The notes below the pieces were generated by a model. That model was given only the letters and a program-made list of their open reading frames with translations, searched no databases and had not been told where the DNA came from. A stretch of 64,000 nucleotides of DNA, from positions 5,152,001 to 5,216,000 of the forward strand of contig OZ245842.1 in NCBI GenBank assembly GCA_965228895.1, written 5' to 3'. The stretch is from Alphaproteobacteria bacterium. GTDB taxonomy: Bacteria; Pseudomonadota; Alphaproteobacteria; SP197. The position numbers and the translations under genes were made by a program. Positions 8,546 through 35,986 of this stretch are shown here, one piece after another. The stretch's first letter is position 1, and each line of letters opens with the position of its first letter.

Positions 8546-8557
8546 GAACACACGACA

Positions 8558-9718
8558 ATGGTTCGTTACTGCAAATCTTGCCTGTATCCGGATTCGAAAC
8601 CGGATCTAAGTTTCGATGAAGACGGCGTATGCAGCGCCTGTACGGCTTTTGACGCCCGCACCGAGATCGATTGGGAGGCAAGGCGGCAGGAGTTTCTTGA
8701 CATCGTCGCGCAGTATCGCAGCCGCGATGGCAGTAACTACGACTGCATTGTTCCGGTTTCAGGGGGCAAAGATTCAACCTACCAAGTGTTGCGTCTGCTG
8801 GAAGCTGATCTCAACCCTCTCTGCGTGACCGCCATGACAGATGCGCTGTCGGACATCGGCCGGCGTAACATCGAAAACATCAAGAGCCTTGGCGTTGACC
8901 ATATCGAAGTAACGATGAATCCGGTGATCCGCCGGCGTCTCAACAAGCTTGCGTTAACGCAAGTGGGTGATATCTCGTGGCCGGAGCACGTGACGATCTT
9001 TACGGTGCCCGTCCGTATCGCCGTGCAGCTCGGCATTCGCCTGATTGTATGGGGCGAAAATCCTCAGAACGAATACGGTGGCCCGGCCGCCGCGAGCGAG
9101 CACCAGACCTTAACCCGCCGGTGGCTGGAGGAGTTCGGTGGTCTGCTGGGCCTTCGTGTCAGTGATCTCGTCGAATTGGACGGTATCGAGCGGCGTCACC
9201 TCATCCAGTACGTCTACCCCAGCGACGACGCTCTTTCGGCTGCGGGCGTCACCGGAATTTTTCTGGGCCATTATTTTCCTTGGGATGGCTGGACAAACGC
9301 GCTGTTGGCACAAGCCCATGGTTTCGAGACGCTGCCTCATCTGGTTGAAGGCTCGCTCGCCAACTATGAGAACCTCGACAACCACCAAACCGGCATCCAC
9401 GACTACTTCAAGTTCTTGAAGTTTGGTTTCGGCCGCGCGACAGACATTGCCAATAACCACATTCGGCGTGGCCGTCTGTCGCGTGAGGACGCAGTCAGCA
9501 TCGTCAGGCGCCATGACGGTGCGTTCCCGCGGACCTGCCTGGGCCGGCCTCTCGAAGATATTCTGCGCGAGATCGATATGACGACGGAGGAGTTCCATCG
9601 GGTCTGCGATCAGTTCACCAACAAGCGCATCTTTGTCTGCGGCAACGATGGCCAACCGGTGCGCGACAAAGACGGCAACCTTAGACTTCTTGATGCGAGC
9701 TACGGATCGGACTCATGA
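8558..9718 (+). CDS. N-acetyl sugar amidotransferase (WbuX/PseA family)
   Basis: N-terminal CxxC...CxxC, PP-loop 'YDCIVPVSGGKDS', 'WGENPQNEYGG', 'YFKFLKFGFGRAT'. Confidence 0.92.
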   Translation: MVRYCKSCLYPDSKPDLSFDEDGVCSACTAFDARTEIDWEARRQEFLDIVAQYRSRDGSNYDCIVPVSGGKDSTYQVLRLLEADLNPLCVTAMTDALSDIGRRNIENIKSLGVDHIEVTMNPVIRRRLNKLALTQVGDISWPEHVTIFTVPVRIAVQLGIRLIVWGENPQNEYGGPAAASEHQTLTRRWLEEFGGLLGLRVSDLVELDGIERRHLIQYVYPSDDALSAAGVTGIFLGHYFPWDGWTNALLAQAHGFETLPHLVEGSLANYENLDNHQTGIHDYFKFLKFGFGRATDIANNHIRRGRLSREDAVSIVRRHDGAFPRTCLGRPLEDILREIDMTTEEFHRVCDQFTNKRIFVCGNDGQPVRDKDGNLRLLDASYGSDS

Positions 9719-10335
9719 CGTCCGTCGCCATCGTTGACTACGGTCTTTGCAATCTCGACTCGATAAGGCGTGCGACAGAAGAGTGTGGCGGCCAAGTCCG
9801 GGTTACCGACAAGCCCGACGATTTGGCTGACGCCGAGCGCATCATCCTGCCCGGCGTCGGATCGTTTGCGAAAGCCATGGAGAACCTTCACGCGCGGGGC
9901 TTTGCCGCGGCTCTAACAGAAGCTGTCAAGACGCGTCGGGTCCCGCTGTTGGGTATTTGTCTTGGCATGCACCTGCTTGGAGAAGAAGGCACCGAGGGCG
10001 GTCCATGCCCGGGCCTGGGTCTTTTGCGAGGCAGGATCACGCGCCTTAAACCAGCAAACGGCGCGGGAACCGAACGCGTTCCGCATATCGGCTGGAATGA
10101 TGTGCATCCGGCCGGCGTGTCATCGCTTTTCGACGGCGTTGCGCCCGGTACCGACTTTTACTTCGTGCACGGTTATCGGCTTGAAAGCCCGGCCGAAGAA
10201 ACACTGTGTACCGTCGACTACTGTGGCCAGACCGTTGCCGCCGCCGGCAACGCCCAAGTCATGGCTGTCCAGTTTCACCCGGAAAAAAGTCAGACCGCTG
10301 GTTTCCAGGTGCTGAAGAACTTCCTGATCTCGTGA
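9715..10335 (+). CDS. HisH-like glutamine amidotransferase (WbuY-like)
   Basis: 'LPGVGSF', 'LGICLGM', 'PHIGWN', 'FYFVHGY', 'QFHPEKS'. Confidence 0.93.
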   Translation: MTSVAIVDYGLCNLDSIRRATEECGGQVRVTDKPDDLADAERIILPGVGSFAKAMENLHARGFAAALTEAVKTRRVPLLGICLGMHLLGEEGTEGGPCPGLGLLRGRITRLKPANGAGTERVPHIGWNDVHPAGVSSLFDGVAPGTDFYFVHGYRLESPAEETLCTVDYCGQTVAAAGNAQVMAVQFHPEKSQTAGFQVLKNFLIS

Positions 10336-11094
10336 ATGCTGAAGCACCGCGTCATGCCGACGTTGCTCCTCAAAGAGGTGGGGTTGGTCAAGGGTGTCGC
10401 GTTCGACTCATGGCGGCGGGTCGGTGCGGCCATGCAGACGGTCAAGGTCTACAACATGCGACAGGTCGACGAGCTCGTCTTCCTGGACATCGCCGCGACG
10501 CCGAACGGCAACGCGCCGGACTTTCACCTTATCGACGAACTGGCTGATGCGTGTTTCATGCCCATGACGGTCGGCGGCGGTGTTCGTTCGGTGGATGATA
10601 TGCGGTCGCTGTTGGCCGTTGGCGCGGACAAGGTTGCGATCAACAGCGCGGCTGTTGAAGATCCTTCGCTGATATCCAAAGGCGCTGAAGAGTTCGGTTC
10701 GCAGTGCATCACCGTTTCCATCGATGTGAAGCGACAATCCGATGGCCGCACTGAAGTCGTCACGCGATGCGGTACCCATGAGACAGGCCTCGACCCCGTC
10801 GCGTGGGCACGCGATGTCGAGCAACGGGGTGGCGGCGAGATCCTGTTGGGATCGGTTGACCGGGATGGAACGATGTCCGGCTATGATGTCGACACGATAC
10901 GTGCGGTCAGCGATGCCGTCGGCATTCCGGTTATCGCATCTGGCGGCGCCGGCAGCTTCCAGGATATGGCCGACGCGATCAAGCAGGGCGGTGCTGATGC
11001 GGTCGCCGCTGCCAGCATCTTTCATTTTACCGAAATGACACCGAAAGAAGCCAAGCGTTACCTGCGCGACCAGGGCTTGCCGGTTCGCCTATGA
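10336..11094 (+). CDS. HisF-like cyclase-fold protein (WbuZ-like ammonia channel)
   Basis: 'DELVFLDI', 'VGGGVRS', 'GADKVAINSAA', 'DRDGTMSGYD', 'IASGGAG'; 'PTLLL' in place of canonical 'PCLD'. Confidence 0.92.
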   Translation: MLKHRVMPTLLLKEVGLVKGVAFDSWRRVGAAMQTVKVYNMRQVDELVFLDIAATPNGNAPDFHLIDELADACFMPMTVGGGVRSVDDMRSLLAVGADKVAINSAAVEDPSLISKGAEEFGSQCITVSIDVKRQSDGRTEVVTRCGTHETGLDPVAWARDVEQRGGGEILLGSVDRDGTMSGYDVDTIRAVSDAVGIPVIASGGAGSFQDMADAIKQGGADAVAAASIFHFTEMTPKEAKRYLRDQGLPVRL

Positions 11095-11822
11095 CCGCCG
11101 TGACCGCGATCATCGTCCAGGCCCGGCAGTCGTCGACGCGGCTTCCGGGAAAGGTGTTGTTGCCGCTGGGCGGTCAGACGGTGTTGTGGCATGTCCTGAC
11201 GCGATGCGGTGCTGTGGAAGCTGCCGATCTCGTTTGCTGCGCGATCCCTGAAAACGACATTGGCGGGCCGCTGGAACGGGAGGCCGATCGCGCGGGCGTT
11301 ACGGTCGCCGGCGGTTCCGAACACGACGTCCTCGCGCGCTATCGTGATGCCGCACGCGAAGTCGGTGCTGATGTCGTGATGCGTGTCACCAGCGACTGTC
11401 CCGTCATCGACCCGCACGTGTGCGACAGCGTGCTTGCTGCCCTAGCGGAGGCTGGTGCCGACTACGCATGCAACAACATGCCGCGCACCTGGCCACACGG
11501 CTTGGACTGCGAAGCCTTCACGCGCAGCATCCTCGAACGCGCTGCGGATATCGCGACGGACCCTTACGACCGTGAACATGTGACGCCCTGGTTGCGTCGC
11601 GATCCAGACGTGCGATGTGTCAATGTCGCTGGCCCAGGTGGTGAACTGGCGCATCAACGCTGGACACTCGACTATCCCGAAGATTACGCGTTCTTCGAGG
11701 CGCTCATGCCTCACCTGTCATCACGGTCACGCATGGCAGGCCATGCCGAGATCGCCGCGATTATTGAGGCGCATCCCGAGATTGCGGCGTTGAACGCCGG
11801 GCGCCGGATCGACGCTGCCTAA
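11091..11822 (+). CDS. pseF: SpsF/PseF-type cytidylyltransferase (CMP-pseudaminate synthetase candidate)
   Basis: 'IVQARQSSTRLPGKVL', 'GSEHDVLARY', 'RVTSDCP', 'REHVTP', 'WTLDYPED'. Confidence 0.8.
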   Translation: MTAVTAIIVQARQSSTRLPGKVLLPLGGQTVLWHVLTRCGAVEAADLVCCAIPENDIGGPLEREADRAGVTVAGGSEHDVLARYRDAAREVGADVVMRVTSDCPVIDPHVCDSVLAALAEAGADYACNNMPRTWPHGLDCEAFTRSILERAADIATDPYDREHVTPWLRRDPDVRCVNVAGPGGELAHQRWTLDYPEDYAFFEALMPHLSSRSRMAGHAEIAAIIEAHPEIAALNAGRRIDAA

Positions 11823-11833
11823 GGGACCTAACG

Positions 11834-12472
11834 TTGACTGACCCAATTCCTGAGACCGATCAGCTAAAGTTCTGGCGCGGCGAATTCGGCAACAATTATA
11901 CCGATCGCAATGCCAACACACAGGCGGAGATTCAAGCGCGTGTTGCGCTGTGGTCGACAATCATGGCGCGTCTTGTTGGCGCGCCGCCACAGAGCATCCT
12001 CGAGGTCGGGGCCAACATCGGCAACAACCTGCGGGCATTGCGGCAGCTCACGTCCGCGACATTCTTGGCGGTCGAGCCCAACGAAAAAGCACGGCAGACC
12101 CTGGTCGACGACGGCGTGGTGGACGCGAAGAACGTGCGCGGTGGATTCGCTGCGGCCATCGACTTGCCGACCGCTTCCGTGGATCTTGTCTTCACCAGCG
12201 GCGTACTCATCCATATTCATCCCGACGACCTCGCCGTATCATGCGCCGAGATCCATCGCGTCTGCCGACGTTATCTCTGCTGCGTCGAATATTTCGCCGA
12301 TAAGCCGGAGGAGCTCAGCTATCGCGGCCATAGCGAGCGCCTTTTCAAACGAGACTTCGGTGCCATGTGGCTCGACAATCACGATGACCTGCAGGTGGTC
12401 GACTACGGTTTTGTTTGGAAACCCATGACCGGTCTGGACAACCTGACCTGGTGGCTTTTCGAGAAACGCTAG
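11834..12472 (+). CDS. Pseudaminic acid biosynthesis-associated methylase
   Basis: 'FWRGEFGNNYTDRN', 'LEVGANIGNNL', 'FTSGVLIHIHP', 'YRGHSERLFKRDF'. Confidence 0.92.
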   Translation: MTDPIPETDQLKFWRGEFGNNYTDRNANTQAEIQARVALWSTIMARLVGAPPQSILEVGANIGNNLRALRQLTSATFLAVEPNEKARQTLVDDGVVDAKNVRGGFAAAIDLPTASVDLVFTSGVLIHIHPDDLAVSCAEIHRVCRRYLCCVEYFADKPEELSYRGHSERLFKRDFGAMWLDNHDDLQVVDYGFVWKPMTGLDNLTWWLFEKR

Positions 12473-12476
12473 CGAC

Positions 12477-13910
12477 ATGAGACATGCCGTCTTTCGCTGC
12501 CGCGCTGGCGCCCATATTGGCGGTGGTCATGTCGTGCGGTGTCTGGCTCTGGCCGACAGACTCGTGACGCTAGGCTGGCGCTGCAGCTTCGCGGTCAACA
12601 AGGAAGCTGTCGCTACGGTTGGTTCTCTGACGTCGGCATCCCTTGCGATCCATGATCTCGACGATTTTGACGGTGCCGACTTGTTGGTGATCGACGATTA
12701 CGACGCCGACGCTGTTACCGAGAGTAGCTTGCGCGATCGTGCCCGGCAGATCGTCTGTATCGATGATCTCGCAGATCGACCGCATCAATGTGATGTGCTG
12801 CTGGATCCAACGCTCGAGCGAACGAGCGACGACTATCAAGGTCTTGTGCAATCGTCTTGCCGCATGTTGCTGGGCCCAGACTACGCCCTGGTGCGCGAAG
12901 AGTTCACAGTGCGCCGCCACCAGGCGCTCGAGCGCGACGTCGGTGAAGTGCGTCGTGTCCTCGTAGCCCCAGGCCAGGTTGATCAGGCTGATCTTGCCGG
13001 TTTGGCGGTTGCCGCGGTCCGACAGGTCTTGCCCGATGCCGCCATCGATGTCGTGCTTGGCCAATCGGCGCCACACCGCCGGCGCGTTGCGGATCTGGCA
13101 GATGACAACGTAACCCTGCATGTCGATCTGGATGGTGCCGGCGTTGCCGATTTGATGACACGTGCTGATTTGGCGATCGGCGCCGGTGGCGGGGGGACGT
13201 GGGAACGATGTGTGCTCGGACTGCCGACGGTCGTTGTGGTGGTCGCGGACAACCAGGCGGGTATAGCGGCCGGCTTGGAACGAGCCGGCGCCGCCGTGGT
13301 AGCGGGCCGAATGGATGACGTCGATGCCGCCCGTTTGGGTGAACTGGTCGCCGGGATTGCCGGTCAACCACAAACACTTAGGCGAATCACCGAGAAGGCG
13401 GCTGCCCTGTGCGACGGTCGCGGCGTCTTCAGAACTGCGGTGGCAATAGTGCCGCATCTCGTTGCGGCCAACGATCATCATGTTCGGTTACGCGCGGCCG
13501 AGTTTGATGATTGCGCCCAGATGTATGATTGGCAGCGAGATCCGGATACAAGGCGCCACGCGCGCAACACCGACGTGCCGACCTGGCCTGAGCATCAGGC
13601 GTGGTTGCGTGGGAAGCTAGAAGACGAAAACTGCCTGTTCACGATTATCGAGCGCGATCAAGAGGCAGCCGGCGTGTTGCGGCTCGATCGGCGAGACGAC
13701 AGTTTCGAGGTTTCGATTGTTGTTGCGCCCGAGCACCGCGCTACCGGTGTAGGTGCAGCGGCCCTTCGGCTTGGACGCGACCTTGTGCCTGGTCACGCGT
13801 TGACCGCCTATGTCAAACCCCAGAACAAAGCGTCAGAACGGCTGTTTCGCCAGGCCGGGTATGAAGTCGACGGCGACGGCCTCTACCGCCAACTCCCCGA
13901 GGCGGCTTAG
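12477..13910 (+). CDS. pseG: Bifunctional PseG nucleotidase fused to PseH-like GNAT N-acetyltransferase
   Basis: N-terminal 'IGGGHVVRCLALA', 'IDDLADR', 'AIGAGGGGTWERC', 'ADNQ'; C-terminal GNAT ('EHQAW', 'G.GAAAL', 'N.ASERLF..AGY'). Confidence 0.9.
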   Translation: MRHAVFRCRAGAHIGGGHVVRCLALADRLVTLGWRCSFAVNKEAVATVGSLTSASLAIHDLDDFDGADLLVIDDYDADAVTESSLRDRARQIVCIDDLADRPHQCDVLLDPTLERTSDDYQGLVQSSCRMLLGPDYALVREEFTVRRHQALERDVGEVRRVLVAPGQVDQADLAGLAVAAVRQVLPDAAIDVVLGQSAPHRRRVADLADDNVTLHVDLDGAGVADLMTRADLAIGAGGGGTWERCVLGLPTVVVVVADNQAGIAAGLERAGAAVVAGRMDDVDAARLGELVAGIAGQPQTLRRITEKAAALCDGRGVFRTAVAIVPHLVAANDHHVRLRAAEFDDCAQMYDWQRDPDTRRHARNTDVPTWPEHQAWLRGKLEDENCLFTIIERDQEAAGVLRLDRRDDSFEVSIVVAPEHRATGVGAAALRLGRDLVPGHALTAYVKPQNKASERLFRQAGYEVDGDGLYRQLPEAA

Positions 13911-13915
13911 GACGC

Positions 13916-14989
13916 ATGGGACGTCAGGACCTTAACATCGCGGGACGACCGATCGGCCCCGGCCATCCGCCCTTTGTTATCGCGGAACTGTCCGGCAACC
14001 ATAACGGCAGCCTTGACCGCGCCATCGGGCTGGTCGAGGCCGCGGCAGCCGCCGGTGCGGACGCCGTTAAACTCCAGACCTATACGGCCGACACCATCAC
14101 AATCGACCATGATGGGCCGGAGTTCCGACTGACCGAGGGGCTTTGGGCCGGCCGCACGCTTCACGAGCTTTATCAGGAAGCCCATACGCCCTGGGAATGG
14201 CATGAGACCTTGTTTCGGCGTGGCCGTGACCTCGGGCTCATCGTGTTCAGCTCGCCGTTCGATCCAACGGCTATCGATTTTCTCGAAGCGCTCGATGCGC
14301 CCGCCTACAAGATCGCCTCGTTCGAGATTGTCGACCTTCCGTTGATAAGACATGCAGCGCGAACCGGAAAACCGTTGATCGTCTCAACCGGTATGGCGCG
14401 GCTCGACGAGATTGACGAAGCGATTGGGGCGGCGCGCGATGAAGGCAACGACAACATCGCGTTGCTGCATTGCGTCAGCGGCTATCCGACGCCGACAGAC
14501 GAGGCGAACCTAAGCACCATCGCCGATCTCGCCGAACGGTTCGATGTCACAGTCGGTCTTTCGGATCATACGCTGGGGATTGTTGTGCCCATTTGTGCCG
14601 TCAGCCTGGGTGCGACGATCATCGAAAAACACATGACCGGCGCGCGTGCCGATGGCGGTCCCGATGCGGCGTTCTCGCTTGAACCCGACGAGTTCAAGGC
14701 TCTGACGAAAGGGTGCCGCACGGCCTTTGGCGCGATCGGCACGGTCGACTATGACCTGAAGCCGAGCGAAGCGGATAACGTCATGCTAAGGCGCTCGCTT
14801 TACGCCGTCGATGATGTCGCCGAGGGCGAGGTCTTCACGGCGGAAAATGTACGCTCCATCCGTCCCGGCTTCGGTCTACAGCCCAAGTTTATGCCATTGG
14901 TGTTGGGCCGGCGGGCGACGGGTCCGATCCCGCGTGGGACCGCACTGCAAGAAGATCACGTTTCAGGACTGAGTGCGGATGCCAAGTAA
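13916..14989 (+). CDS. pseI: Pseudaminic acid synthase
   Basis: 'IAELSGNHNGSL', 'KLQTYTADTIT', 'AHTPWEWH', 'YKIASFE', 'GLSDHT', 'IEKH', SAF tail 'RRSLY...IRPGFG'. Confidence 0.96.
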   Translation: MGRQDLNIAGRPIGPGHPPFVIAELSGNHNGSLDRAIGLVEAAAAAGADAVKLQTYTADTITIDHDGPEFRLTEGLWAGRTLHELYQEAHTPWEWHETLFRRGRDLGLIVFSSPFDPTAIDFLEALDAPAYKIASFEIVDLPLIRHAARTGKPLIVSTGMARLDEIDEAIGAARDEGNDNIALLHCVSGYPTPTDEANLSTIADLAERFDVTVGLSDHTLGIVVPICAVSLGATIIEKHMTGARADGGPDAAFSLEPDEFKALTKGCRTAFGAIGTVDYDLKPSEADNVMLRRSLYAVDDVAEGEVFTAENVRSIRPGFGLQPKFMPLVLGRRATGPIPRGTALQEDHVSGLSADAK

Positions 14990-16268
14990 GCTTGCCTTGT
15001 TCGGCGGCGCGCCGGCCATCGATTACGAACTCAAACCCTATCGCACGATAGGCGAGGAAGAGCGCACGGCCGTCGACCAGGTCATGAAGACCGGCGAGCT
15101 CTCCGGTTTTGTCGGCGCATGGTGCGACGCCTTCAACGGCGGCCCGCAGGTTCAGGCGTTCGAAGCCGCCTGGCAGGAGAAATTCGGCGTACGCCATGCC
15201 ATATCGGTCAACTCGAACACATCCGGTTTGTTCGCCGCCATGGGCGCCATCGGGCTCGGGCCCGGCGACGAGGTGATTGTTCCGCCCTATACCATGTCGG
15301 CAACGGTCATGGCGCCGTTGATCTATGGCGGCATTCCGGTGTTTGTCGATATCGAGCCCGAAACCTTCTGTCTTGATATCGACCTCGTACGTCAGGCGAT
15401 CACACCGCGCACGCGTGCCATCTTGGTCGTCAACCTGTTCGGCCATCCCGCTGAACTGCATGGGCTGCGCGAACTCGCCGATGATCGGGGCATCGTGCTG
15501 ATCGAGGATAACGCCCAGGCTCCACTGGCGACCGAAGACGGAGTTATGACTGGCACGATCGGGCATATCGGCGTTTTCAGTCTGAACTACCACAAGCACT
15601 TTCACACCGGCGAAGGCGGCGTGTGCACGACCGACGACGACGACCTTGCCCAGCGGCTGAGGCTGATTCGCAATCATGGTGAAAACGTTGTCGAGCCGCT
15701 GGCGATCGACGATGCCACCAACCTGATCGGCTTCAACTATCGCCTGACGGAGTTGAGTGCGGCGGTCGGCATTGAACAGCTCAAGAAGGCCGATGCTCTC
15801 GTGTCCGGCCGCGAGTCCGTTTCGCTGCGCTTGTCGGACGGCGTACGCGGACTTCCCGGTCTAACGCCGCCTGCAGTCCGCGACGGTTGCCGCCATGTCT
15901 TCTATCACTGGGGCGCACGCTACGACGAGAGCGCCACAGGTGTTTCCAGGGAGACGGTGGCGCGCGCCTTGGCGGCGGAAGGCGTTCCGGTTTGGCAGGG
16001 TTATGTGGCGCCGCTCTACATGCTTCCAGTCTTTCAGCGGCGCCATGCCATCGGTCGGGACGGCTTTCCGTTCACCTTGACCGACCGACAATACGACCGC
16101 GGCCTCTGTCCAGTCGCCGAGCGATGTCACGAACGCGAGCTGTTGGAGTTCGCCGTTTGCGTGTTCGACATGTCGGATGCCGAAACAAACGCCGTTATCA
16201 ATGCGTTCCAAAAGGTCTTTGAGAACTTGTCTGATCTCTCCAATCTGGCCAGTGAGAAGGCGAGTTGA
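14979..16268 (+). CDS. DegT/DnrJ/EryC1/StrS PLP aminotransferase
   Basis: 'GPGDEVIVPPYTMSAT', 'IEDNAQA', 'FSLNYHKHFHTGEGG', 'RNHGE', 'GFNYRLTE'. Confidence 0.93.
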   Translation: MPSKLALFGGAPAIDYELKPYRTIGEEERTAVDQVMKTGELSGFVGAWCDAFNGGPQVQAFEAAWQEKFGVRHAISVNSNTSGLFAAMGAIGLGPGDEVIVPPYTMSATVMAPLIYGGIPVFVDIEPETFCLDIDLVRQAITPRTRAILVVNLFGHPAELHGLRELADDRGIVLIEDNAQAPLATEDGVMTGTIGHIGVFSLNYHKHFHTGEGGVCTTDDDDLAQRLRLIRNHGENVVEPLAIDDATNLIGFNYRLTELSAAVGIEQLKKADALVSGRESVSLRLSDGVRGLPGLTPPAVRDGCRHVFYHWGARYDESATGVSRETVARALAAEGVPVWQGYVAPLYMLPVFQRRHAIGRDGFPFTLTDRQYDRGLCPVAERCHERELLEFAVCVFDMSDAETNAVINAFQKVFENLSDLSNLASEKAS

Positions 16269-17029
16269 CCATGAGCCTGCGGATCATCGCAACGATTGAA
16301 GCACGCATGACGTCGTCGCGCCTGCCCGGCAAGGTGCTTATGCCGGCGGCAGGCCAGCCGCTGCTGGAGATTCTGCTACAACGTCTCGGGAAGACACCGA
16401 GCCTGGATGGCATCGTCATCGCGACAACCACCAACGAAGCCGACGATCCGATTGCGGCACTGGGCGACAGGATGGGCGTCGGCGTCTTTCGCGGTAGCGA
16501 GGACGATGTCCTCGGGCGTGTATGCGGGGCTCTGCGTTCGGCCCAAGCCGATATCTGTGTCGAGATTACCGGCGATTGTCCCTTGATCGATCCGGTGATT
16601 GTGCAGGAGGCGATCGACGCATTTCTCGAGACGTCGGACACCCACCCTTATGTCAGCAACTCCGATCCTTATCGCGCGGTGCCGGCAGGGTTGGACGTGC
16701 AGGTCTTCTTTGCCGAGGCACTTTATGATCTGGCATCGCAAACGACTGATCCGGCCGACAGGGAGCATGTTTCGCTGGGCTTCTACCGACCCGACAGCAA
16801 AGACAAATGGCGCCCCCGCTTTATCAGCCACGCATCATGCCGGGGCGCCCAAGACCTTCTCGTCACGCTCGACTACGCCGAAGACTATGAGCTCATTCGC
16901 CGCTTGCACGAAGCACTCAGTGTCGATGAACCGGATTATGGCGCCCATCAGATCGTTGACTGGATCCGCAGGCATCCCCGCCTTCAGGCGGCATGCCGGC
17001 AATGCCGGGCGCTCGAGCTGGCCTCATGA
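16265..17029 (+). CDS. Second SpsF-type cytidylyltransferase
   Basis: 'IEARMTSSRLPGKVL', 'FRGSEDDVLGRV', 'EITGDCPLIDP', 'TLDYAEDY'. Confidence 0.88.
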   Translation: MTMSLRIIATIEARMTSSRLPGKVLMPAAGQPLLEILLQRLGKTPSLDGIVIATTTNEADDPIAALGDRMGVGVFRGSEDDVLGRVCGALRSAQADICVEITGDCPLIDPVIVQEAIDAFLETSDTHPYVSNSDPYRAVPAGLDVQVFFAEALYDLASQTTDPADREHVSLGFYRPDSKDKWRPRFISHASCRGAQDLLVTLDYAEDYELIRRLHEALSVDEPDYGAHQIVDWIRRHPRLQAACRQCRALELAS

Positions 17030-18021
17030 ACGATCCGCTGATTGTTGGCGTCATGGGCGCCGGGCGAATGGCGCAAGGTTATGATAGCCCGGGCGACAAG
17101 AACATCTTGAGCCATGCCCATGCAATCCAGGCACATCCAAGACTTAGCCTGGGTGGATTCTTCGACTGCAATGAGAGCCGCGCCGCCTCGGCGGAAGATC
17201 GGTGGGATGCGCCCGCTACACCGCGCGACAGATCGGCATGGCTCGGTCAGCCATGGGATGTCGTCTGTATCGCGACGCCCGATGATCAGCACGCTCAGGA
17301 CTTGTCGGATGTTCTCGATCGGCGACCGCGTGCGGTGGTGGTGGAGAAGCCGCTGGCGACAGACCCCGATCAAGCCGAGCGTTTGCTGGAACGCGCCAGC
17401 GACGATGGCATCCCCGTTCTTGTCGATTTTCCGCGCCGCTATCACACCGGTGTCGCCGCGGTGGGAGAGCTGATCAGCGACGGGCACCTCGGCGATCCAC
17501 TGGCTGGATCTTTTGTCTTCTCCGGCACGCCGGCTCACGCGGCGATCCACATGCTGGATCTGTTTCATAGCTGGTGGGGCGGTGGATGGTCGCCACGGCC
17601 GATGGGCAGCGGATGCGACAGCGCAACCATCGAATTCGATCGTGATGGCAAAGCGGTCACGATCAACTTCACTTCGCTGCCGAGCGATCACCACTATGTG
17701 TGGGAGATGCACGTTTACTGTGAGCGCGGAAAAATAGCGCTGGCGTCGAGCCCGGAAGTCCTGTCGGTGGAACTGACCGGAAAACACCCGGTCTATACGG
17801 CTGTTGACGTGCTGGCGCCGCAGATGCGGTTTGACATGGAGAATGAGCCACTTCTGACCGGCCTGATGAACGCGGTTGTGGAAGCTGTCGAGACGCCGGA
17901 AAAAATTGGATTGCTGTTGGATCGGGAAATCGGCAGTCAGCGGTTCAGTGGAAGCGTGCTGCGCCTGCTGCGGTCGGCCGAAATCCATGTCGTTGATGCG
18001 GCGTCGCGATGCCGGGCCTAG
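17026..18021 (+). CDS. Gfo/Idh/MocA family NAD(P)-dependent oxidoreductase
   Basis: 'GVMGAGRMA', 'IATPDDQH', 'VEKPLA', 'PRRY', 'HMLDL'; ATGA overlap with upstream gene. Confidence 0.88.
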   Translation: MNDPLIVGVMGAGRMAQGYDSPGDKNILSHAHAIQAHPRLSLGGFFDCNESRAASAEDRWDAPATPRDRSAWLGQPWDVVCIATPDDQHAQDLSDVLDRRPRAVVVEKPLATDPDQAERLLERASDDGIPVLVDFPRRYHTGVAAVGELISDGHLGDPLAGSFVFSGTPAHAAIHMLDLFHSWWGGGWSPRPMGSGCDSATIEFDRDGKAVTINFTSLPSDHHYVWEMHVYCERGKIALASSPEVLSVELTGKHPVYTAVDVLAPQMRFDMENEPLLTGLMNAVVEAVETPEKIGLLLDREIGSQRFSGSVLRLLRSAEIHVVDAASRCRA

Positions 18022-19151
18022 CCGATGATCGAAAGCCCGACATCCTGTTGTTCGCAGAAGATCCCGGCGCGGCCAATCTTATCGCGCCTTTGCCGACGCA
18101 GCTTCGGCATGCCGGCCTCCATTGCCGCTTTTTCGCCGACCAACAGCTTGCCGGGTTTCTGAGCGACCGCATGATTGACGTCTGTTTGCTCGAAGACGAA
18201 CCCGGTGACGTGCTCGACGCGCTGGGCCCTCGTCTCGTGGCGTGCGGTACGTCGGAAAACCGCAACGGCAGCAGCCTGGCCATACTCGATGCCGCGCATG
18301 AGCGCGGCATAACGTCGCTGGGACTGGTCGATATGCTGGCGAATGCGAGGCATCGATTCCAAGGTGCCGGTGAGCACCCGCTGGAACACGCGCCCGACTG
18401 GATCGCCGTGCCCGACGCGCCGACCGCCCGTATCTATGTGGAGCTGGGATTTCCAGCGGACCGCATCGCCGTTTGCGGCCATCCCCATTACGACGTCGTT
18501 CGCGACAGACGCGAAGAGTTCTTGTGCCAGTCGCGCGATGCCATGCGTGGAGAACTGCTTCCCGATGCACCACCGGATCGACCGGTGCTGATTTTTCTTG
18601 CCGAAGGAGTCGACCAGCTTGATCCGGAAGCCAGCCGGGCGACAGCGGCCTATACATTGCGTGGCAGCGGCAACAGCAATGACCGGACAACCATCGTCTT
18701 GGAGGAGATCCTGGCAGCGGTCGACGAACTCAACCCAAGGCCTTATGTCGTTCTTCGTTTACATCCCAAAAATGCGGCGAGCGACTACCAGAGCCTTCGC
18801 CATAAGATCGACCTTGTGAGCCATGACGGGGATCCTCTTCCGCTCCTCTGGTGTGCGGATAGCGTTGTCGGCATGACGACGTTCTTGCTCGTCGAGGCTT
18901 CGTTGCTCGGGTTGCCGACCTTGTCGGTCTTGCCGCGGGCCGAGGAGGCCGAATGGCTGCCAACCACTGCGGACGGAACGACACCAGTTGTCACGGCAAG
19001 ACATTACCTGCGCAGAAAATTGCAGGAGATTCTGGATCGGTCCGTTCGCAATCAGCGCGAAGTCCAATTGCCGTCCGGCGCCGGACAGAACACTGCTGCG
19101 CTGATCAAACAATTGCTGGGCCACTCGCATGATGTGGCGGACACGGATTGA
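18009..19151 (+). CDS. GT-B fold protein, putative ulosonate glycosyltransferase (or NeuC-like)
   Basis: 'PDWIAVPD', 'CGHPHYD', 'LRLHPK', 'ADSVVGMTTFLLVEASLLGLPTLS' resemble CDP-glycerol/sialyltransferase/UDP-GlcNAc 2-epimerase-like GT-B proteins. Confidence 0.55.
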   Translation: MPGLADDRKPDILLFAEDPGAANLIAPLPTQLRHAGLHCRFFADQQLAGFLSDRMIDVCLLEDEPGDVLDALGPRLVACGTSENRNGSSLAILDAAHERGITSLGLVDMLANARHRFQGAGEHPLEHAPDWIAVPDAPTARIYVELGFPADRIAVCGHPHYDVVRDRREEFLCQSRDAMRGELLPDAPPDRPVLIFLAEGVDQLDPEASRATAAYTLRGSGNSNDRTTIVLEEILAAVDELNPRPYVVLRLHPKNAASDYQSLRHKIDLVSHDGDPLPLLWCADSVVGMTTFLLVEASLLGLPTLSVLPRAEEAEWLPTTADGTTPVVTARHYLRRKLQEILDRSVRNQREVQLPSGAGQNTAALIKQLLGHSHDVADTD

Positions 19152-19690
19152 TTAGGACACCGACAATAGAAACGTCACGTCTCGTGTTGCAGCCATTTGA
19201 TGATCGACATCTTACCGAGCGCTATGTCGCTTGGTTGAACGATCCGGTTGTCGTCCGCTTCAGTGAACAGCGGCATGCGCATCACACATTGGAAAGCTGC
19301 AAGATTTACTTTGATGGACTACTCGCTGGTGAGCACTTCTTCTGGGCCATCGAGTTGCAGGGCGCATCGCCAGTGCATATCGGGAACATGACGGCCTATC
19401 GGGATCGACCGAACAATGTAGCTGAAATCTCGATCTTGCTCGGTGACCGTGGACATCACGGAAATCACTATGGCAAGGAAGCTTGGTGTGCGGTGGTAGA
19501 CCACCTCATCGTCAGTGAGAATGTCAGGCGTGTCGAAGCGGGAGCTATGGAACTCAATGAGCCCATGCTTCGGATCTTCAAGGCAAGTGGCATGCACGAG
19601 GAGGGCCGTCAGAAAGGGCGTTTCCTTTTGGATGGCCAACCCGTTGATCTCGTTCATGCCAGCCGATTTGCAGAGAGCGGTGGGCGGTAG
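19148..19690 (+). CDS. GNAT N-acetyltransferase (RimJ/RimL-like)
   Basis: 'YVAWLND', 'HIGN', 'HGNHYGKEAW', 'NEPMLRIFKASGMHEEG'. Confidence 0.88.
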   Translation: MIRTPTIETSRLVLQPFDDRHLTERYVAWLNDPVVVRFSEQRHAHHTLESCKIYFDGLLAGEHFFWAIELQGASPVHIGNMTAYRDRPNNVAEISILLGDRGHHGNHYGKEAWCAVVDHLIVSENVRRVEAGAMELNEPMLRIFKASGMHEEGRQKGRFLLDGQPVDLVHASRFAESGGR

Positions 19691-19694: not shown

Positions 19695-19780
19695 TCGACA
19701 TTCAACTCAATGTTGGGTTGCGCATGTAACCGGTGCGAGATTTGCCGTGCCAAGAGCATGAGAAAGTTGGATCCCTGATC

Positions 19781-21466
19781 ATGAGGCGACATGCACACGC
19801 GACGTTGGGCCTAGCCAAACGTGCCGTTGTGTCAGGGGTCCAGGTCGTTCGAGACACGATGCCGTCGAACCGCCGCCTCACTGCCGAACGAGAGGCTGTG
19901 CGTGAACGTGCGGAGACGTTAATGGCCAGCCTGGCGGTGGGCGGTACACCGGCCTTTGACGGCAAGGTCCTGCTCGACGGTATGTTTGACAACGCCAACT
20001 ACTGGTATCGCCTTTCTCTGCTGCGTGCCGCATTGGGACTTGGTCACGCAGACGAGACTGGCCTCTATGGTCCATACATGGCCAAGTACGCCCGCCGCAC
20101 GTTCGATAGGTTCGGCATAAAGCGCCACGTCGCCTTCGATGGTTTGTTGACACCAAGCGACAGAGACCATGCCAGACGCGAGGCGGAAAGACTTGTCGGC
20201 GAGACGTCGCGGCCGGATGACATCCTGTCCTGGCAGTTGCCGTTCGACGTACCGCCTGGGCTCGTCTATGACGGCATTCTCAAAGCACAACGTGCCCCAA
20301 GCGTCGACACCAAACTTCCTCTGTTCACCGACCAGGTTGAGCGTTGTCTTGTCGAAATCCTGGCCGCAGCAAGGTTGCTCGACCAGACCGAGCCGAACCT
20401 GGTTGTTCTGAGCCATAGCTGCAATGTCAGCGATGGGACGCTGTGCCATGTTGCGGCCCAACGCGGTGTGCCCACCATCGTCGCTTTTGGCAACTATGGT
20501 GTCCCGCGCTACTGCCGGACCGATCGGACGGACGAGTTGTTCGACCCGGTCGATCGACCGAGCGGTCACGACCTGGAGTCGCTGCCGGAAACGCGTGCCG
20601 ACGCGCTGGCGCAAGCAGGAAGACAGCATCTGCAAGCGCGCTTCGAGGGCGCTACAGATGATGTCGGCGGTCAGTACGCCTTTGCCAAAGCGAACGGTAA
20701 CCTGACGCGTGCCGGCGTTGCGGCGCAATTCGGCTGGGACCCGGACCGTCCGATCGTGGCTGTGTATGCCGCCAATTGGTTCGACTACCCCCACTACATG
20801 GGCATGTCCAACTTCCGCGACTTCGCCGATTTCATCACGACCACGGTTCAAATCGCAATCGAGTGCTCCGACGTCAACTGGTTGTTTCGCCGGCATCCGG
20901 CCGATGACTTTTATGGCGGCAAGACGCTTAAAGATGTCATGCCCGCAAACCTGCCGCCCCATGTCGCGCTTTCCCCCAACGCGTGGAACGGTTCGGAACT
21001 CATGGGCTGTATCGATGGTGCGGTGACCTACCATGGAACAATCGGGATAGAAGCCGCGACCATAGGAAAACCGGTCATCGTTGCCGACCGTGGCTGGTAT
21101 GATGATTGCGGTTTTGTCACCCGTCCCGACGATCGCGCAGCCTATTGCGCGGCGCTGAAAGACCGGCAGTGGCTCGATGTGGATGTCCAGACCCGTCGAC
21201 GGAACGCCGAAATTTTCGCCGGCTGGTACTTTACGGTGCCAAGCTGGCAGGGCCAGTTGATCTGCGGCGACGATAGCGGCCAATGGTCGAACTATGACCG
21301 ACTGTCACAACTGATGACGCAGGAGGGCGCCGCGATACAGCGTGAAGTCGCGCAGATTTCAGCATGGTGGTCATCGGGCGCTCGTTTCTATCACACCGAA
21401 AAGATGCGTCATGCCGATGCGTTCATGGTGAGCAATGTCCACCGCGGGCAGGCTGGCACGACATGA
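19781..21466 (+). CDS. Capsule polysaccharide biosynthesis (KpsS/Capsule_synth-like) GT-B protein
   Basis: 'WLFRRHPAD', 'AVTYHGTIGIEAATIGKPVI' C-terminal motif typical of Capsule_synth-like proteins. Start 19733 or 19781. Confidence 0.65.
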   Translation: MRRHAHATLGLAKRAVVSGVQVVRDTMPSNRRLTAEREAVRERAETLMASLAVGGTPAFDGKVLLDGMFDNANYWYRLSLLRAALGLGHADETGLYGPYMAKYARRTFDRFGIKRHVAFDGLLTPSDRDHARREAERLVGETSRPDDILSWQLPFDVPPGLVYDGILKAQRAPSVDTKLPLFTDQVERCLVEILAAARLLDQTEPNLVVLSHSCNVSDGTLCHVAAQRGVPTIVAFGNYGVPRYCRTDRTDELFDPVDRPSGHDLESLPETRADALAQAGRQHLQARFEGATDDVGGQYAFAKANGNLTRAGVAAQFGWDPDRPIVAVYAANWFDYPHYMGMSNFRDFADFITTTVQIAIECSDVNWLFRRHPADDFYGGKTLKDVMPANLPPHVALSPNAWNGSELMGCIDGAVTYHGTIGIEAATIGKPVIVADRGWYDDCGFVTRPDDRAAYCAALKDRQWLDVDVQTRRRNAEIFAGWYFTVPSWQGQLICGDDSGQWSNYDRLSQLMTQEGAAIQREVAQISAWWSSGARFYHTEKMRHADAFMVSNVHRGQAGTT

Positions 21467-23307: not shown

Positions 23308-25185
23308 ATGGCGACAACGCAAGGTAAACACGGTGACCGCCGCTTGGAGCCTTTGGCGGCCGTTACGGGCAGCGCTTCCTCGGTTCTGGGGATGTCTGTC
23401 TCGGCTTGGCGTCTGCTCGAACCGGGCGAGAAGGTAGCGACGACGTTCATTCTGATCGCATCCGTGATTTCGTCGGCGGTCGAACTGGCGGCACTGTCGA
23501 CGGCTGTGCCTTTTGTGGGATTGTTGGTCGACCCAGACTCGCTGGATCGCTTTCCCTTGATCGGCGAGTTTTTTGCGATGTTGGGTCTGTCGCTCGACAA
23601 CGATGCGGTTCTGCTGGCAGGTGTGCTCGTTATCGCAAGTTTGACAGTCGCCTTTCTGTTCCGCACGGCCATCTTCTTCGCGGTCGAGCGCTTTAGTGCA
23701 CGCTTTGCTAATCGGTTGGTCGACGACCTCATCCGAGGCTGCCTATTTGGCCCCTATGCGTGGCTGCGTACGCAGAACGGCGCGCTGCTGGCGCAGCGCC
23801 TGTCAATCGATGCTTCTTCTGTGGGCCATGGACTTCTGTCGAGCATCCTCGATCTGTCCTATAGCCTGTTCATTCTCATCATCGGCATTGTCGTCGTTGT
23901 CACGGCGTCTTCGTGGATGACGATCGTCGTTTTGGGTGTGTTTGCGGTCATTGTCGCCATTGCATTGTCGGTTTTGAACCCGCTTTCCGCCCGCCTGTCA
24001 TCCAAACAGCGACTGCATAACATCCGCAGCATGCAGGAAGGAATCGAGGCGCTTGAAGGGTCGAAGGTTCTGCGTGTCACCGGTACCGAAGGCTATTTCG
24101 TGAGGCGGTTTGTCGGCAGTTGGGGTTTGGCAAACTACGCGCGCATGAACCTCAATCTCGTCAACAAGCTAATCCCGACGACAATCCTTCTGATCGGTCA
24201 GATTGGCATGCTGACATTGGCGATGTCGCTCTTTGCGCTCGACTTACCCAATGAGCTCATCGTTACGCAGCTCACGTTTATTCTCTTGGTTCTTGTCCGC
24301 GTATTGCCTGCGGTGTCGTCCATAAGCGGATCGGTCAATCGCCTGGTCAAGCTTGAGCCTTTCTTCCGTGGATATGCTGAGCTACGCGAGCAGGTCCTGT
24401 CCTGGGGATCACAAGACGAACGAGAGGCGAAGCCGGGACGCCCGGTCGATCTGTCGTGGAGCACACTGACATTTGACAATGTTGAGTTTGGTTTTGCTGA
24501 TTCCGATCGTGTGCAGCTCAAGGCCATTTCGTTTTCGCTTCAGTATGGGCAGCACTATGGCTTTGTCGGGCCGTCCGGCGCCGGAAAGAGCACGTTGCTC
24601 GATATTCTACTCGGCCTTCTGGAGCCGACGAACGGGCGTGTTTTGCTCGACCAGCAACCGCTGCAGGGACGTTGCCGTGCGGCATGGCTTGCGGCGATCG
24701 GTTACGTGCCGCAGGAGCCGTTTATCATCGATGACTCGCTTCGCCGAAATGTCGCGTTCGGCATCGACGACGCCGATGTCAGCGATGACAAGATATGGAA
24801 AGCCCTTGAGCTTGCCGAACTTGCGAGCCTCGTGCGCGATTGGCCCGATGGCCTTGCGACGTCACTGGGAGACGGCGGGGCGAGGCTGTCCGGTGGCCAG
24901 CGCCAGAGGGTTGCCATTGCCCGCGCCCTCTATTTCGATCCCCAGATCCTGGTCTTTGACGAGGCGACGAGCGCGCTCGATCTTCCGACCGAAAACGCCA
25001 TCCGAAAAACGATCGCAAAGCTGAGCGGCCAGCGCACCACGGTCACGATTACCCACCGGCTTGCAACGCTTTCCGACTGTGATCGCATCTTTATCTTGGT
25101 CGATGGCGAGATATCGGCATCCGGCACATTTGAACAGCTGTCGCGCGAAAATCGGTCCTTTCAATTGTTGTCGAACTCACCATGA
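23308..25185 (+). CDS. PglK/MsbA-type fused ABC transporter (lipid-linked glycan flippase candidate)
   Basis: N-terminal TM domain; Walker A 'GPSGAGKST', 'GYVPQ', signature 'LSGGQRQR', Walker B 'LVFDEATSALD', 'THRL'. Confidence 0.92.
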   Translation: MATTQGKHGDRRLEPLAAVTGSASSVLGMSVSAWRLLEPGEKVATTFILIASVISSAVELAALSTAVPFVGLLVDPDSLDRFPLIGEFFAMLGLSLDNDAVLLAGVLVIASLTVAFLFRTAIFFAVERFSARFANRLVDDLIRGCLFGPYAWLRTQNGALLAQRLSIDASSVGHGLLSSILDLSYSLFILIIGIVVVVTASSWMTIVVLGVFAVIVAIALSVLNPLSARLSSKQRLHNIRSMQEGIEALEGSKVLRVTGTEGYFVRRFVGSWGLANYARMNLNLVNKLIPTTILLIGQIGMLTLAMSLFALDLPNELIVTQLTFILLVLVRVLPAVSSISGSVNRLVKLEPFFRGYAELREQVLSWGSQDEREAKPGRPVDLSWSTLTFDNVEFGFADSDRVQLKAISFSLQYGQHYGFVGPSGAGKSTLLDILLGLLEPTNGRVLLDQQPLQGRCRAAWLAAIGYVPQEPFIIDDSLRRNVAFGIDDADVSDDKIWKALELAELASLVRDWPDGLATSLGDGGARLSGGQRQRVAIARALYFDPQILVFDEATSALDLPTENAIRKTIAKLSGQRTTVTITHRLATLSDCDRIFILVDGEISASGTFEQLSRENRSFQLLSNSP

Positions 25186-33761: not shown

Positions 33762-33791
33762 ACTTCACTCTGCCGAAACGAGCCTTTTGCC

Positions 33792-35336: not shown

Positions 35337-35344
35337 CCCACGCC

Positions 35345-35983: not shown

Positions 35984-35986
35984 TCA

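Follow-up and report, generated by a model that had tools for sequence, protein, structure and literature searches.

A gene cassette downstream of the pseudaminic acid pathway

Nonulosonic acids decorate flagella, capsules and lipopolysaccharide (LPS) and influence how immune systems and phages recognise these structures; those known so far differ in stereochemistry and in the acyl groups at N5 and N7. The window analysed here, a stretch of 64,000 nucleotides from an alphaproteobacterial genome (contig OZ245842.1, positions 5,152,001 to 5,216,000), contains a glycan locus of about 48 kb whose co-directional genes include those for pseudaminic acid (Pse) and, right after pseI, a cassette of five overlapping plus-strand genes (14973-19690), here called DegT2, CT2, GFO2, GTB and GNAT2, which we tentatively read as a set for tailoring a nonulosonate (NulO). 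The genome is a single contig of 5.53 Mb and is 98.7% complete. An earlier note, made from the nucleotide letters, had picked out these five overlapping genes and named their families, and the open reading frames (ORFs), Pfam and NCBIfam scans and HP motifs agree with it. Successive ORF overlaps from pseI through GNAT2 are 17, 4, 37, 13 and 4 bases, the third of which probably shrinks, as a later start of GFO2 at ATG 17026 is likely and would give a 4-base overlap with CT2.

Ahead of the cassette, the core Pse pathway occupies 6321-14989 on the plus strand. By NCBIfam and Pfam assignments it comprises pseB, pseC, the acetamidino genes wbuX-hisH-wbuZ, a cytidylyltransferase gene (CT1, 11091-11822, plus strand; PF02348 6.9e-20), a Pse-associated methylase gene, a pseG-GNAT fusion and pseI (13916-14989, plus strand; TIGR03586 489 bits, cut-off 340), in this order and preceded by a methyltransferase gene that follows a NusG paralogue. 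NCBIfam equivalog models are matched above cut-off for PseB (509 bits), PseC (497), WbuX (324), Pse_Me-ase (182), PseG (230) and PseI (489). The PseG-GNAT fusion protein (477 amino acids, 12477-13910), which gives 230 bits with the PseG model, reaches just 22.8 bits with the PseH model; a syntenic locus (L003) lacks the fusion gene and has a radical-SAM/SPASM gene between pseI and DegT2. On these assignments the core pathway is complete without the cassette: a full set of pseB/C/G-H/I and a cytidylyltransferase makes the module supernumerary, which supports the earlier reading of it. The earlier note had also stated that the module contains neither a synthase nor a 4,6-dehydratase. This holds for 14973-19690, where ORF and family scans found no NeuB-family gene and no dehydratase gene of the short-chain dehydrogenase/reductase (SDR) type, but 'synthase-less' would be wrong for the locus, which contains a second, cupin-fused NeuB-family gene (514 amino acids, 33792-35336) about 14 kb downstream of the cassette. 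These two NeuB-family matches, both within the window, are exactly those of the whole genome, which has one PseG and no Epimerase_2 gene. Three cytidylyltransferases thus stand against two synthases in the locus, with CT2 as the odd one out.

DegT2 (14973-16268, plus strand, probable start ATG 14979) encodes a long (431 amino acids) aminotransferase of the DegT/DnrJ/EryC1 family dependent on pyridoxal phosphate (PLP; PF01041 1e-81), with an intact PLP-lysine motif SLNYHK (K208). Its best solved relatives are Fic25 (8gyh, 2.9e-54), perosamine synthetase (3.7e-51) and scyllo-inosose aminotransferases; KdnA (5k8b, 8.3e-41) ranks eighth among solved chains and WbpE chains follow at 3.8e-34. It is 31% identical to the PseC of the window and 63-91% identical to the homologues listed. 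CT2 (16265-17029, plus strand; PF02348 2.9e-23) is an SpsF-type cytidylyltransferase (CTP_transf_3) and a paralogue of CT1, to which it is 37% identical over its full length, as would fit a substrate closely related to that of CT1; its similarity to CT3, the third such enzyme of the locus, is marginal. The best solved relative of CT2 is 6oew, a 'cytidylyltransferase' (7.6e-30), and KdsB chains match at about 1e-9.

GFO2 (16993-18021, plus strand) is a divergent NAD(P) oxidoreductase of the Gfo/Idh/MocA family, recognised by PF01408 (4e-14) in its N-terminal Rossmann part only, with no Pfam match for a C-terminal domain. Solved relatives align only over residues 38-178 or so (best E 2.6e-07), and no chain of WbpB/WlbA and none named ElaA is among its 34 solved matches (E up to 0.01); an archaeal UDP-GlcNAc 3-dehydrogenase model matches weakly (3.3e-09). 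All 61 cassette homologues share the EKP motif (residues 118-120), and all but one have H186. A hidden Markov model built from these 61 sequences matched only 4 ORFs in the genome; the second of these (1636493-1637485) lies in no sugar locus and gave no lead. GNAT2 (19148-19690, plus strand; PF13302 1.1e-17) is an N-acyltransferase of the Acetyltransf_3 type, with no NCBIfam match to PseH, no resemblance to the GNAT portion of the PseG-GNAT protein and only two marginal matches to solved structures. When compared with the canonical Pse equivalogs PseC, PseH, PseG and PseF, no cassette member scores above cut-off, CT2 giving weak KdsB matches only.

GTB (18009-19151, plus strand) has no Pfam or NCBIfam match, and fold and profile comparisons place this GT-B-fold protein in the UDP-GlcNAc 2-epimerase (Epimerase_2) superfamily, with a remodelled active site. 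The top Foldseek matches of its AF2 model (pLDDT 91.8) are all 2-epimerases of UDP-GlcNAc or UDP-ManNAc3NAcA (E 6e-14 and weaker, TM about 0.6-0.68, 13-18% identity). Independently of Foldseek, VIA-align puts five 2-epimerases in the lead (Z 27.5-24.1; best 4nes, with Z 27.5, a root-mean-square deviation of 3.4 and 320 aligned residues), ahead of GT4 glycosyltransferases (at most 22.3) and TagF/TarL (17.9), and no sialyltransferase is found among the best 50 structural matches listed. An hhalign comparison of the GTB profile with six canonical epimerases gave Prob 93.7 and E 1.9e-07 over 312 columns, and weak PF02350 matches occur in 10 of 20 family members (best 1.7e-08), the GTB of the window having none. 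The GD and HVEAG columns of the epimerases, whose acidic residues we take to be the catalytic carboxylates, align with T81 and N112 of GTB, both conserved in its family, and the HP histidine (H252) and the position of the ribose-binding glutamate (E296) are kept. Since fold and profile point to the 2-epimerases, the GD/HVEAG positions are replaced and the HP histidine and glutamate are retained, we read GTB as a 2-epimerase descendant which has kept nucleotide binding in an altered active site, and it is not demonstrably a sialyltransferase. It shares fold and profile homology with the family of WecB, NeuC/LegG and WbpI but differs from it at the two carboxylate positions.

Some features of GTB recall glycosyltransferases. 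It contains two HP motifs (GHPHYD, 157-162; LHPKN, 251-255) and, near the N-terminus, E-D-P-G where D/E-D/E-G is expected of HP-motif transferases; the best match of its profile to solved sequences is the HP-motif region of the CMP-Kdo transferase KpsC, at a non-significant E of 0.09, and its Atlas neighbours include clusters with a minority of Glyphos_transf (23%) or polysialyltransferase (13%) members. Fourteen residues of its N-terminal domain are invariant across carriers of many phyla, in flagellar as well as polysaccharide loci, and we read this as indicating that GTB acts on one small substrate rather than on varied acceptors. Among the candidates scored, 256 relatives fall at E <= 0.001, and all those listed are annotated 'hypothetical'. 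Natural fusions join it to GNAT2 (P0031, 561 amino acids), to GFO2 (P0247, 759 amino acids) and to a 330-residue tail with a faint methyltransferase signal (P0246, 690 amino acids).

The next gene, o577 (19733-21466, plus strand, 577 amino acids), has no Pfam match. By its Atlas neighbours it is a candidate CMP-ulosonate glycosyltransferase of the KpsS/KpsC kind, PF05159 (Capsule_synth) being found on 27%, 24% and 63% of members in the nearest clusters, figures that serve as a lead only. In a Chlorobium locus (L012) the ORF after the cassette matches PF05159 at 4.9e-08, and o577 homologues lie downstream of the cassette in L001, L002, L003, L009, L010, L014, L036, L037, L050 and L070. The earlier note had cast GTB as the dedicated transferase of the module, an assignment that we do not retain for an Epimerase_2 homologue with replaced carboxylate positions; o577 seems the likelier candidate.

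Distribution and association with nonulosonate synthases

By scanning one genome per species with two GTB peptide patterns we obtained 96 relatives and kept the best 80 as loci. Their hosts belong to more than ten phyla, including Alpha- and Betaproteobacteria, Desulfobacterota, Melainabacteria and cyanobacteria, Nitrospirota, Chlorobium, Planctomycetota, Verrucomicrobiota, Acidobacteriota, Marinimicrobia and Myxococcota; Tenacibaculum is absent among these 80 best loci, which reflect two peptide patterns only. In 68 of the 80 the sequence around GTB extended 4.6 kb or more upstream and 1.5 kb or more downstream (11 were too short and one had no adequate match). Within 4.6 kb of GTB we find a DegT2-type gene in 67 of 68 loci, a CTP_transf_3 gene in 60, a GFO2 homologue in 50 by tblastn (64/69 by phmmer on ORFs) and a GNAT2 homologue in 46, GNAT2 being missing in 22; all five genes are present together in 28/68 by tblastn and in 36/69 by phmmer. 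Two orders recur, DegT2-CT2-GFO2-GTB-GNAT2 and CT2-GFO2-DegT2-GTB-GNAT2. Other genomes show these five families again in the vicinity of GTB homologues, so the gene set is more than a chance neighbourhood, and judged by gene content the cassette is real, conserved, widespread and uncharacterised. No description of it or of a triamino-nonulosonate pathway was found in the literature searched (main texts, few of them from subscription journals).

Sampling in the reverse direction, we find a DegT2-type gene (E <= 1e-100) in 17 of 301 genomes of Alphaproteobacteria, and among the other genomes selected by DegT2 a GTB-family match is present in 13 of 16, within 10 kb of DegT2 in 12. The cassette is patchy among close kin: in 33 genomes of the window's own order, DegT2 is found in nine, GTB in nine and both in eight. 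The genes can also part company. In L032 to L034 a trio of cytidylyltransferase, GFO and DegT2 genes (CT-GFO-DegT2) lies apart from GTB, which takes the 'PseG slot' ahead of CT1 and pseI. A genome of the same genus as ours (L099) has the trio without GTB, its DegT2 being 86% identical, and L105 again has the trio without GTB. The trio is thus the constant part of the cassette and can stand without GTB. At positions 9100-15200 of L099 the genes are a cytidylyltransferase, a Gfo/Idh/MocA gene of another type, DegT2, two unidentified ORFs, a WbqC-like gene and a GNAT, the ORFs and the WbqC-like gene standing where GTB would be.

The cassette is tied to NulO loci, a point in favour of the earlier reading. 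A NeuB-family gene lies inside 46 of the 68 fetched loci, and in four of five loci without a synthase nearby NeuB is found 2-20 kb further upstream on the same strand. Using the same threshold for 50 carrier genomes, which are those of loci picked by us from the 80, and 14 control genomes, we find NeuB in 49/50 carriers and 6/14 controls. A single NeuB match was obtained in nine of the 50 carriers, including the isolate Paludibacterium yongneupense (L023), so that in these carriers no second synthase is at hand for a parallel nonulosonate. We also looked for loci with DegT2 as the sole aminotransferase, which would have spoken for a hexose-stage role, and rejected this, since ten of ten carriers tested have further DegT-family genes; in five of them such a gene shares the contig of the cassette, at a distance of about 9-11 kb.

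The core that adjoins the cassette is either of the Pse type, as here, or resembles that for legionaminic acid (Leg), with a NeuB_NnaB-like synthase, an SDR, another DegT, a GNAT, a cytidylyltransferase and a canonical Gfo/Idh/MocA gene, often together with a formyltransferase and a deacetylase. Cassettes occur in flagellar loci (L005, with flagellin; L054, with a tetratricopeptide-repeat (TPR) glycosyltransferase, FliK and FlgD) and in loci of polysaccharide type (L047, L012 and this window). In L089 and L093, which lie upstream of L054 and L030, the synthase of a Leg-like core is followed by a formyltransferase and a polysaccharide deacetylase, a pairing that a 2026 preprint connects with CMP-nonulosonates bearing free amines or N-formyl groups in Ca. 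Kuenenia (10.64898/2026.04.20.719630). In some loci, L030 and L047 among them, the cassette has several WbuX-like amidotransferase paralogues (up to three or four) and AsnB-like genes around it, and L047 encodes a WbuX-like domain fused to an amidase (880 amino acids).

Possible roles of the cassette

In the ElaA-ElaB-ElaC system, known from Acinetobacter baumannii KL49 and Vibrio vulnificus and corresponding to PtmF-LegF-PtmA in Leg loci, a Gfo/Idh/MocA protein (ElaA), a CTP-transferase (ElaB) and an SDR (ElaC) are proposed to epimerise CMP-Leg at C8, ElaA oxidising a side-chain alcohol of the CMP-sugar and the reductase ElaC handing the hydride back to the 8-keto intermediate; the activity of ElaA rests on genetics, structures and docking (PMC13656337). 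Its likeness to the cassette lies in a Gfo/Idh/MocA gene adjoining a CTP_transf_3 gene in a NulO locus: GFO2 (PF01408) and CT2 (PF02348) are adjacent, overlap and lie just downstream of pseI. The cassette differs in that it has no SDR reductase (a family scan of 14973-19690 found no ElaC-like adh_short/SDR gene), a DegT aminotransferase, a 2-epimerase-like protein and a GNAT standing in the place of ElaC, and in that GFO2 is far more divergent than ElaA.

In Shewanella, 8-amino-8-deoxy-Kdo (Kdo8N) is made by oxidation, then transamination by a DegT-family enzyme and then activation by a Kdo8N-preferring KdsB. This KdnB/KdnA/KdsB route has an aminotransferase (DegT) and an activator (CTP_transf_3) of the same families as the cassette, whose enzymes may likewise act on a finished ulosonic acid, and KdnA is among the better solved matches of DegT2. 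It has no GT-B or GNAT partner, and the 8-oxidase KdnB is an iron alcohol dehydrogenase that acts on the primary alcohol of an eight-carbon sugar (PMC5125639), whereas the cassette has a Gfo/Idh/MocA dehydrogenase, no KdnB-type enzyme, and a target that would be a secondary alcohol of a nine-carbon sugar. Both precedents had been invoked in the earlier note and stand as far as these two sources describe them.

We suggest, at a confidence somewhat short of even, that the cassette tailors a nonulosonate after condensation by oxidising it, transaminating it and optionally acetylating it, with a dedicated CMP activator. Starting from the observed gene families, intact catalytic motifs, conservation and genomic association, we infer the chemical steps, substrates and positions as follows. 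Pseudaminic acid offers two free secondary alcohols, and GFO2 would oxidise one of them, that at C8, on the side chain beside the 7-acetamido group, being favoured and that at C4 the alternative; DegT2 would transaminate the resulting ketone, and GNAT2, where present, would acylate the new amine. CT2 would make the CMP form either at the start, CMP serving as the kind of handle suggested for ElaB/ElaA, or at the end, as a dedicated activator like that of the Kdo8N route. A 5,7,8- (or 4,5,7-) triamino nonulosonate would result, destined for the LPS or capsule polymer of the locus. GTB is envisaged as a pathway enzyme that binds a nucleotide-linked sugar at or after amination, the final transfer falling to another protein.

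Several observations argue for this reading. The Pse pathway is complete without the cassette, the cassette is strongly associated with NulO genes, nine of 50 carriers have a single synthase match, and the constant part of the cassette, the CT-GFO-DegT2 trio, can stand without GTB. In family make-up the trio equals ElaB/ElaA with the reductase swapped for an aminotransferase, and it also matches KdnB/KdnA. The catalytic motifs are intact (EKP in 61/61 GFO2 homologues, the PLP-lysine motif in DegT2). About one locus in three has no GNAT2, a lack that would be tolerable for a late decoration and intolerable at the hexose stage, where the N-acetyl sugar is the substrate of the synthase. By the carbon bookkeeping of the aldol step, C8 of a nonulosonate would derive from hexose C5, the carbon of the ring oxygen, and C4 would arise in the aldol step itself, so that an amino group could be set at C8 or C4 only after condensation. 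Fic25, the best solved relative of DegT2, aminates a ketone in an open polyol chain, with no hexose nucleotide involved (PMC11726168). A natural 8-amino Pse-like sugar exists (PMC3210612), and its genetics are given as unknown where PMC9796276 deals with it. Apart from these points, tailoring at the level of the CMP-sugar does occur, according to a 2026 preprint describing CMP-nonulosonates with free amines, with formyl groups and, for one compound, an extra nitrogen in other bacteria (10.64898/2026.04.20.719630). We lean tentatively towards C8 over C4 on account of the natural precedent, the ElaA proposal and the expectation that a CMP-linked 3-deoxy-ulosonate with a ketone at C4 would be prone to lose CMP.

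A more far-reaching form of this proposal, in our view possible but doubtful, is that the cassette is the first route to triamino nonulosonates, converting Pse- or Leg-type sugars to 8-amino (or 4-amino) forms at the CMP-sugar or free-acid stage, as in the O-chain sugar of Tenacibaculum maritimum, with GTB a new catalytic offshoot of the 2-epimerases retooled for a CMP-linked ulosonate. GTB might then catalyse an elimination and re-addition across C2-C3, leading to CMP release or a change of anomer; we know of no enzyme that does this on a CMP-linked ulosonate. The T. maritimum literature searched holds no gene-level information on its nonulosonate.

A number of points weigh against tailoring at the nine-carbon stage. 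The scheme leaves GTB without a step, although GTB is the most constant partner of DegT2 (67/68 GTB-selected loci, 13/16 DegT2-selected genomes); its superfamily works on UDP-hexosamines, and it is found fused to GNAT2, much as PseG is to a GNAT in this window, and to GFO2. A PseG match is missing in 14 of the 50 carriers, four of which, one a complete chromosome, also have no Epimerase_2 match, and in these four GTB may be a nucleotide-sugar hydrolase of the hexose stage. The top NCBIfam match of DegT2 is PseC, at 197 bits far below the cut-off of 423.5, and across cassettes identity is much lower for GFO2 (about 25-50%) than for DegT2 (about 45-90%). Leg loci (LegC, LegF, PtmF, LegG, LegH) and the WbpB/E/D/I route offer counterparts of all five families, and two cytidylyltransferases would be unneeded if the chemistry ran on CMP-Pse. 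The product and the enzyme activities are predictions.

The main rival, which we consider unlikely, is a second, divergent branch of Leg/Pse type at the hexose stage, in which DegT2 aminates the UDP-4-keto-6-deoxy-HexNAc supplied by a shared PseB, GNAT2 acetylates it, GTB removes the nucleotide in the role of LegG/PseG, a shared synthase condenses the sugar with phosphoenolpyruvate and CT2 activates the isomeric nonulosonate, GFO2 being a PtmF-type counterpart whose role is unsettled. The families match one to one with LegC, LegH (in function only), LegG, LegF and PtmF in the Plesiomonas shigelloides locus table (PMC4481668) and with SpsC/D/G/F. Indeed, CMP-Leg loci (LegB/C/H/G/I/F with PtmE/F/A) and the sps operon of Bacillus subtilis unite an aminotransferase, an acetyltransferase, a GT-B hydrolase/epimerase, an SpsF/LegF-type cytidylyltransferase and an oxidoreductase (PMC4481668, PMC7439481), but the cassette has no dehydratase or synthase, misses every Leg/Pse equivalog model and sits beside a core that already has these functions. 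On the B. subtilis chromosome the dehydratase gene spsM lies far from the sps block. In PMC7439481 it is listed apart from spsABCDEF. Such a branch would also agree with the homology of GTB to Epimerase_2, the family of LegG/NeuC, with its GNAT fusion (P0031) mirroring the PseG-GNAT fusion of the window, with its 'PseG slot' in L032 to L034, with the four carriers devoid of both PseG and Epimerase_2, and with PseC as the top NCBIfam match of DegT2. However, one synthase would have to accept two sugars in the single-NeuB carriers (9/50), the present genome offering only PseI and a cupin-fused NeuB accompanied by a HAD phosphatase; the ten carriers tested all have further DegT-family genes, in five about 9-11 kb away; GNAT2 is missing in 22/68 loci; GFO2, nearly universal (64/69) and even fused to GTB, would be left without a step; T81 and N112 occupy the epimerase carboxylate positions; and the congener keeps CT-GFO-DegT2 without GTB.

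The full version of the earlier note, with the same oxidise, aminate and acetylate chemistry and GTB as a dedicated CMP-nonulosonate glycosyltransferase, strikes us as quite improbable. The GT-B fold, the HP and E-D-P-G motifs, the non-significant KpsC match (E 0.09) and the Glyphos_transf (23%) and polysialyltransferase (13%) minorities among Atlas neighbours would suit a transferase, as would the presence of DegT2 near GTB in 67/68 loci when DegT2 also occurs without GTB, which is expected of an enzyme that needs the aminated sugar. Yet it is 2-epimerases that come closest in fold and give the only significant profile match, and the 14 invariant residues lie in the N-terminal, acceptor-side domain and persist in flagellar (L005, L054) and polysaccharide-type loci, as would suit one small substrate better than varied acceptors. 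A tailoring enzyme is also suggested by the fusions with a dehydrogenase, with a GNAT and with a methyltransferase-like tail, and a KpsS/C-like gene follows the cassette. Still less credible to us is a route like WbpB/WbpE/WbpD/WbpI (WlbA/C/B/D), which leads to UDP-ManNAc3NAcA and belongs to the hexose-nucleotide chemistry that the earlier note had named as a refuting alternative: UDP-HexNAc or UDP-HexNAcA would undergo 3-oxidation, 3-amination, N-acetylation and 2-epimerisation to a di-N-acetylated hexose for the same polymer, unrelated to the nonulosonate, with CT2 merely in the operon. The same four families come together in both (Gfo/Idh/MocA, DegT, an acetyltransferase and an Epimerase_2 relative), UDP-2,3-diacetamido-2,3-dideoxy-glucuronate 2-epimerases are among the top Foldseek matches of GTB, WbpE chains match DegT2 (3.8e-34) and the archaeal 3-dehydrogenase model weakly matches GFO2 (3.3e-09). 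The Wbp enzymes, however, work on a UDP-hexuronate with no cytidylyltransferase and an acetyltransferase of another fold, a left-handed beta-helix in place of a GNAT, whereas the cassette contains a CTP_transf_3 gene in 60/68 loci, travels with NeuB, often straight after it with overlapping ORFs, and has a GTB whose epimerase carboxylate positions are replaced; moreover no WbpB/WlbA chain is among the solved matches of GFO2, and WbpE comes far below other aminotransferases for DegT2. About a fifth of our belief goes to something other than tailoring at the nine-carbon stage and these three rivals.

Two further schemes were considered and dropped. A hexose 3-amination feeding the synthase would place the nitrogen at C6 of the nonulosonate, derived from hexose C3, which by our reckoning must bear the ring oxygen. 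Oxidation of UDP-GlcNAc at C4 without dehydration would employ all five genes but needs its own synthase, lacking in single-NeuB carriers, and we judge it unlikely.

The oxidise, aminate and acetylate chemistry put forward by the earlier note is the best hypothesis available, as yet unproven, with one of its five gene assignments, that of GTB, corrected; its acetyltransferase step has to be made optional, GNAT2 being present in 46/68 loci and missing in the others. If true, a portable cassette for a third nitrogen would extend nonulosonate chemistry, give genes to an orphan sugar structure and provide enzymes for the synthesis of new sialic-acid analogues. Nor is the cassette rare, with its DegT2-type gene in 17/301 alphaproteobacterial genomes and GTB relatives in more than ten phyla, and two carriers, Paludibacterium yongneupense DSM 18731 and Elstera litoralis Dia-1, are cultured isolates, which makes tailoring of the nonulosonate directly testable. 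As an enzyme family without an assigned reaction, the 2-epimerase-like partner GTB is of interest in itself.

Other genes of the locus

A second ulosonate set (32682-37584) comprises a Gfo/Idh/MocA gene, the NeuB-cupin fusion, a HAD phosphatase gene, a methyltransferase gene and the third CTP_transf_3 gene (36865-37584), and may represent a separate ulosonate route via a phosphorylated intermediate, perhaps Kdn-like. A comparable GNAT-NeuB fusion with a HAD gene lies beside the cassette in L008.

Genes resembling those for O-methyl phosphoramidate (MeOPN) are found at 25182-28992 and 32112-32642. They encode a PRK05849 phosphoenolpyruvate-utilising enzyme (808 bits, cut-off 501), an NTP_transf_3 nucleotidyltransferase, an APS-kinase-like protein and an amidotransferase resembling gamma-glutamyl-CDP-amidate hydrolase (78 bits, below cut-off), a set that we take to be linked to Cj1415-Cj1418. 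In L062 the same MeOPN-like set follows the cassette. On its upstream side the locus is bordered by an O-antigen-ligase-like gene (Wzy_C, 10-1329), a KpsF-like SIS+CBS gene and the NusG/RfaH-like paralogue (together 10-2858 of the window), and at its far end by a heparinase II/III-like gene on the minus strand (53551-55263).

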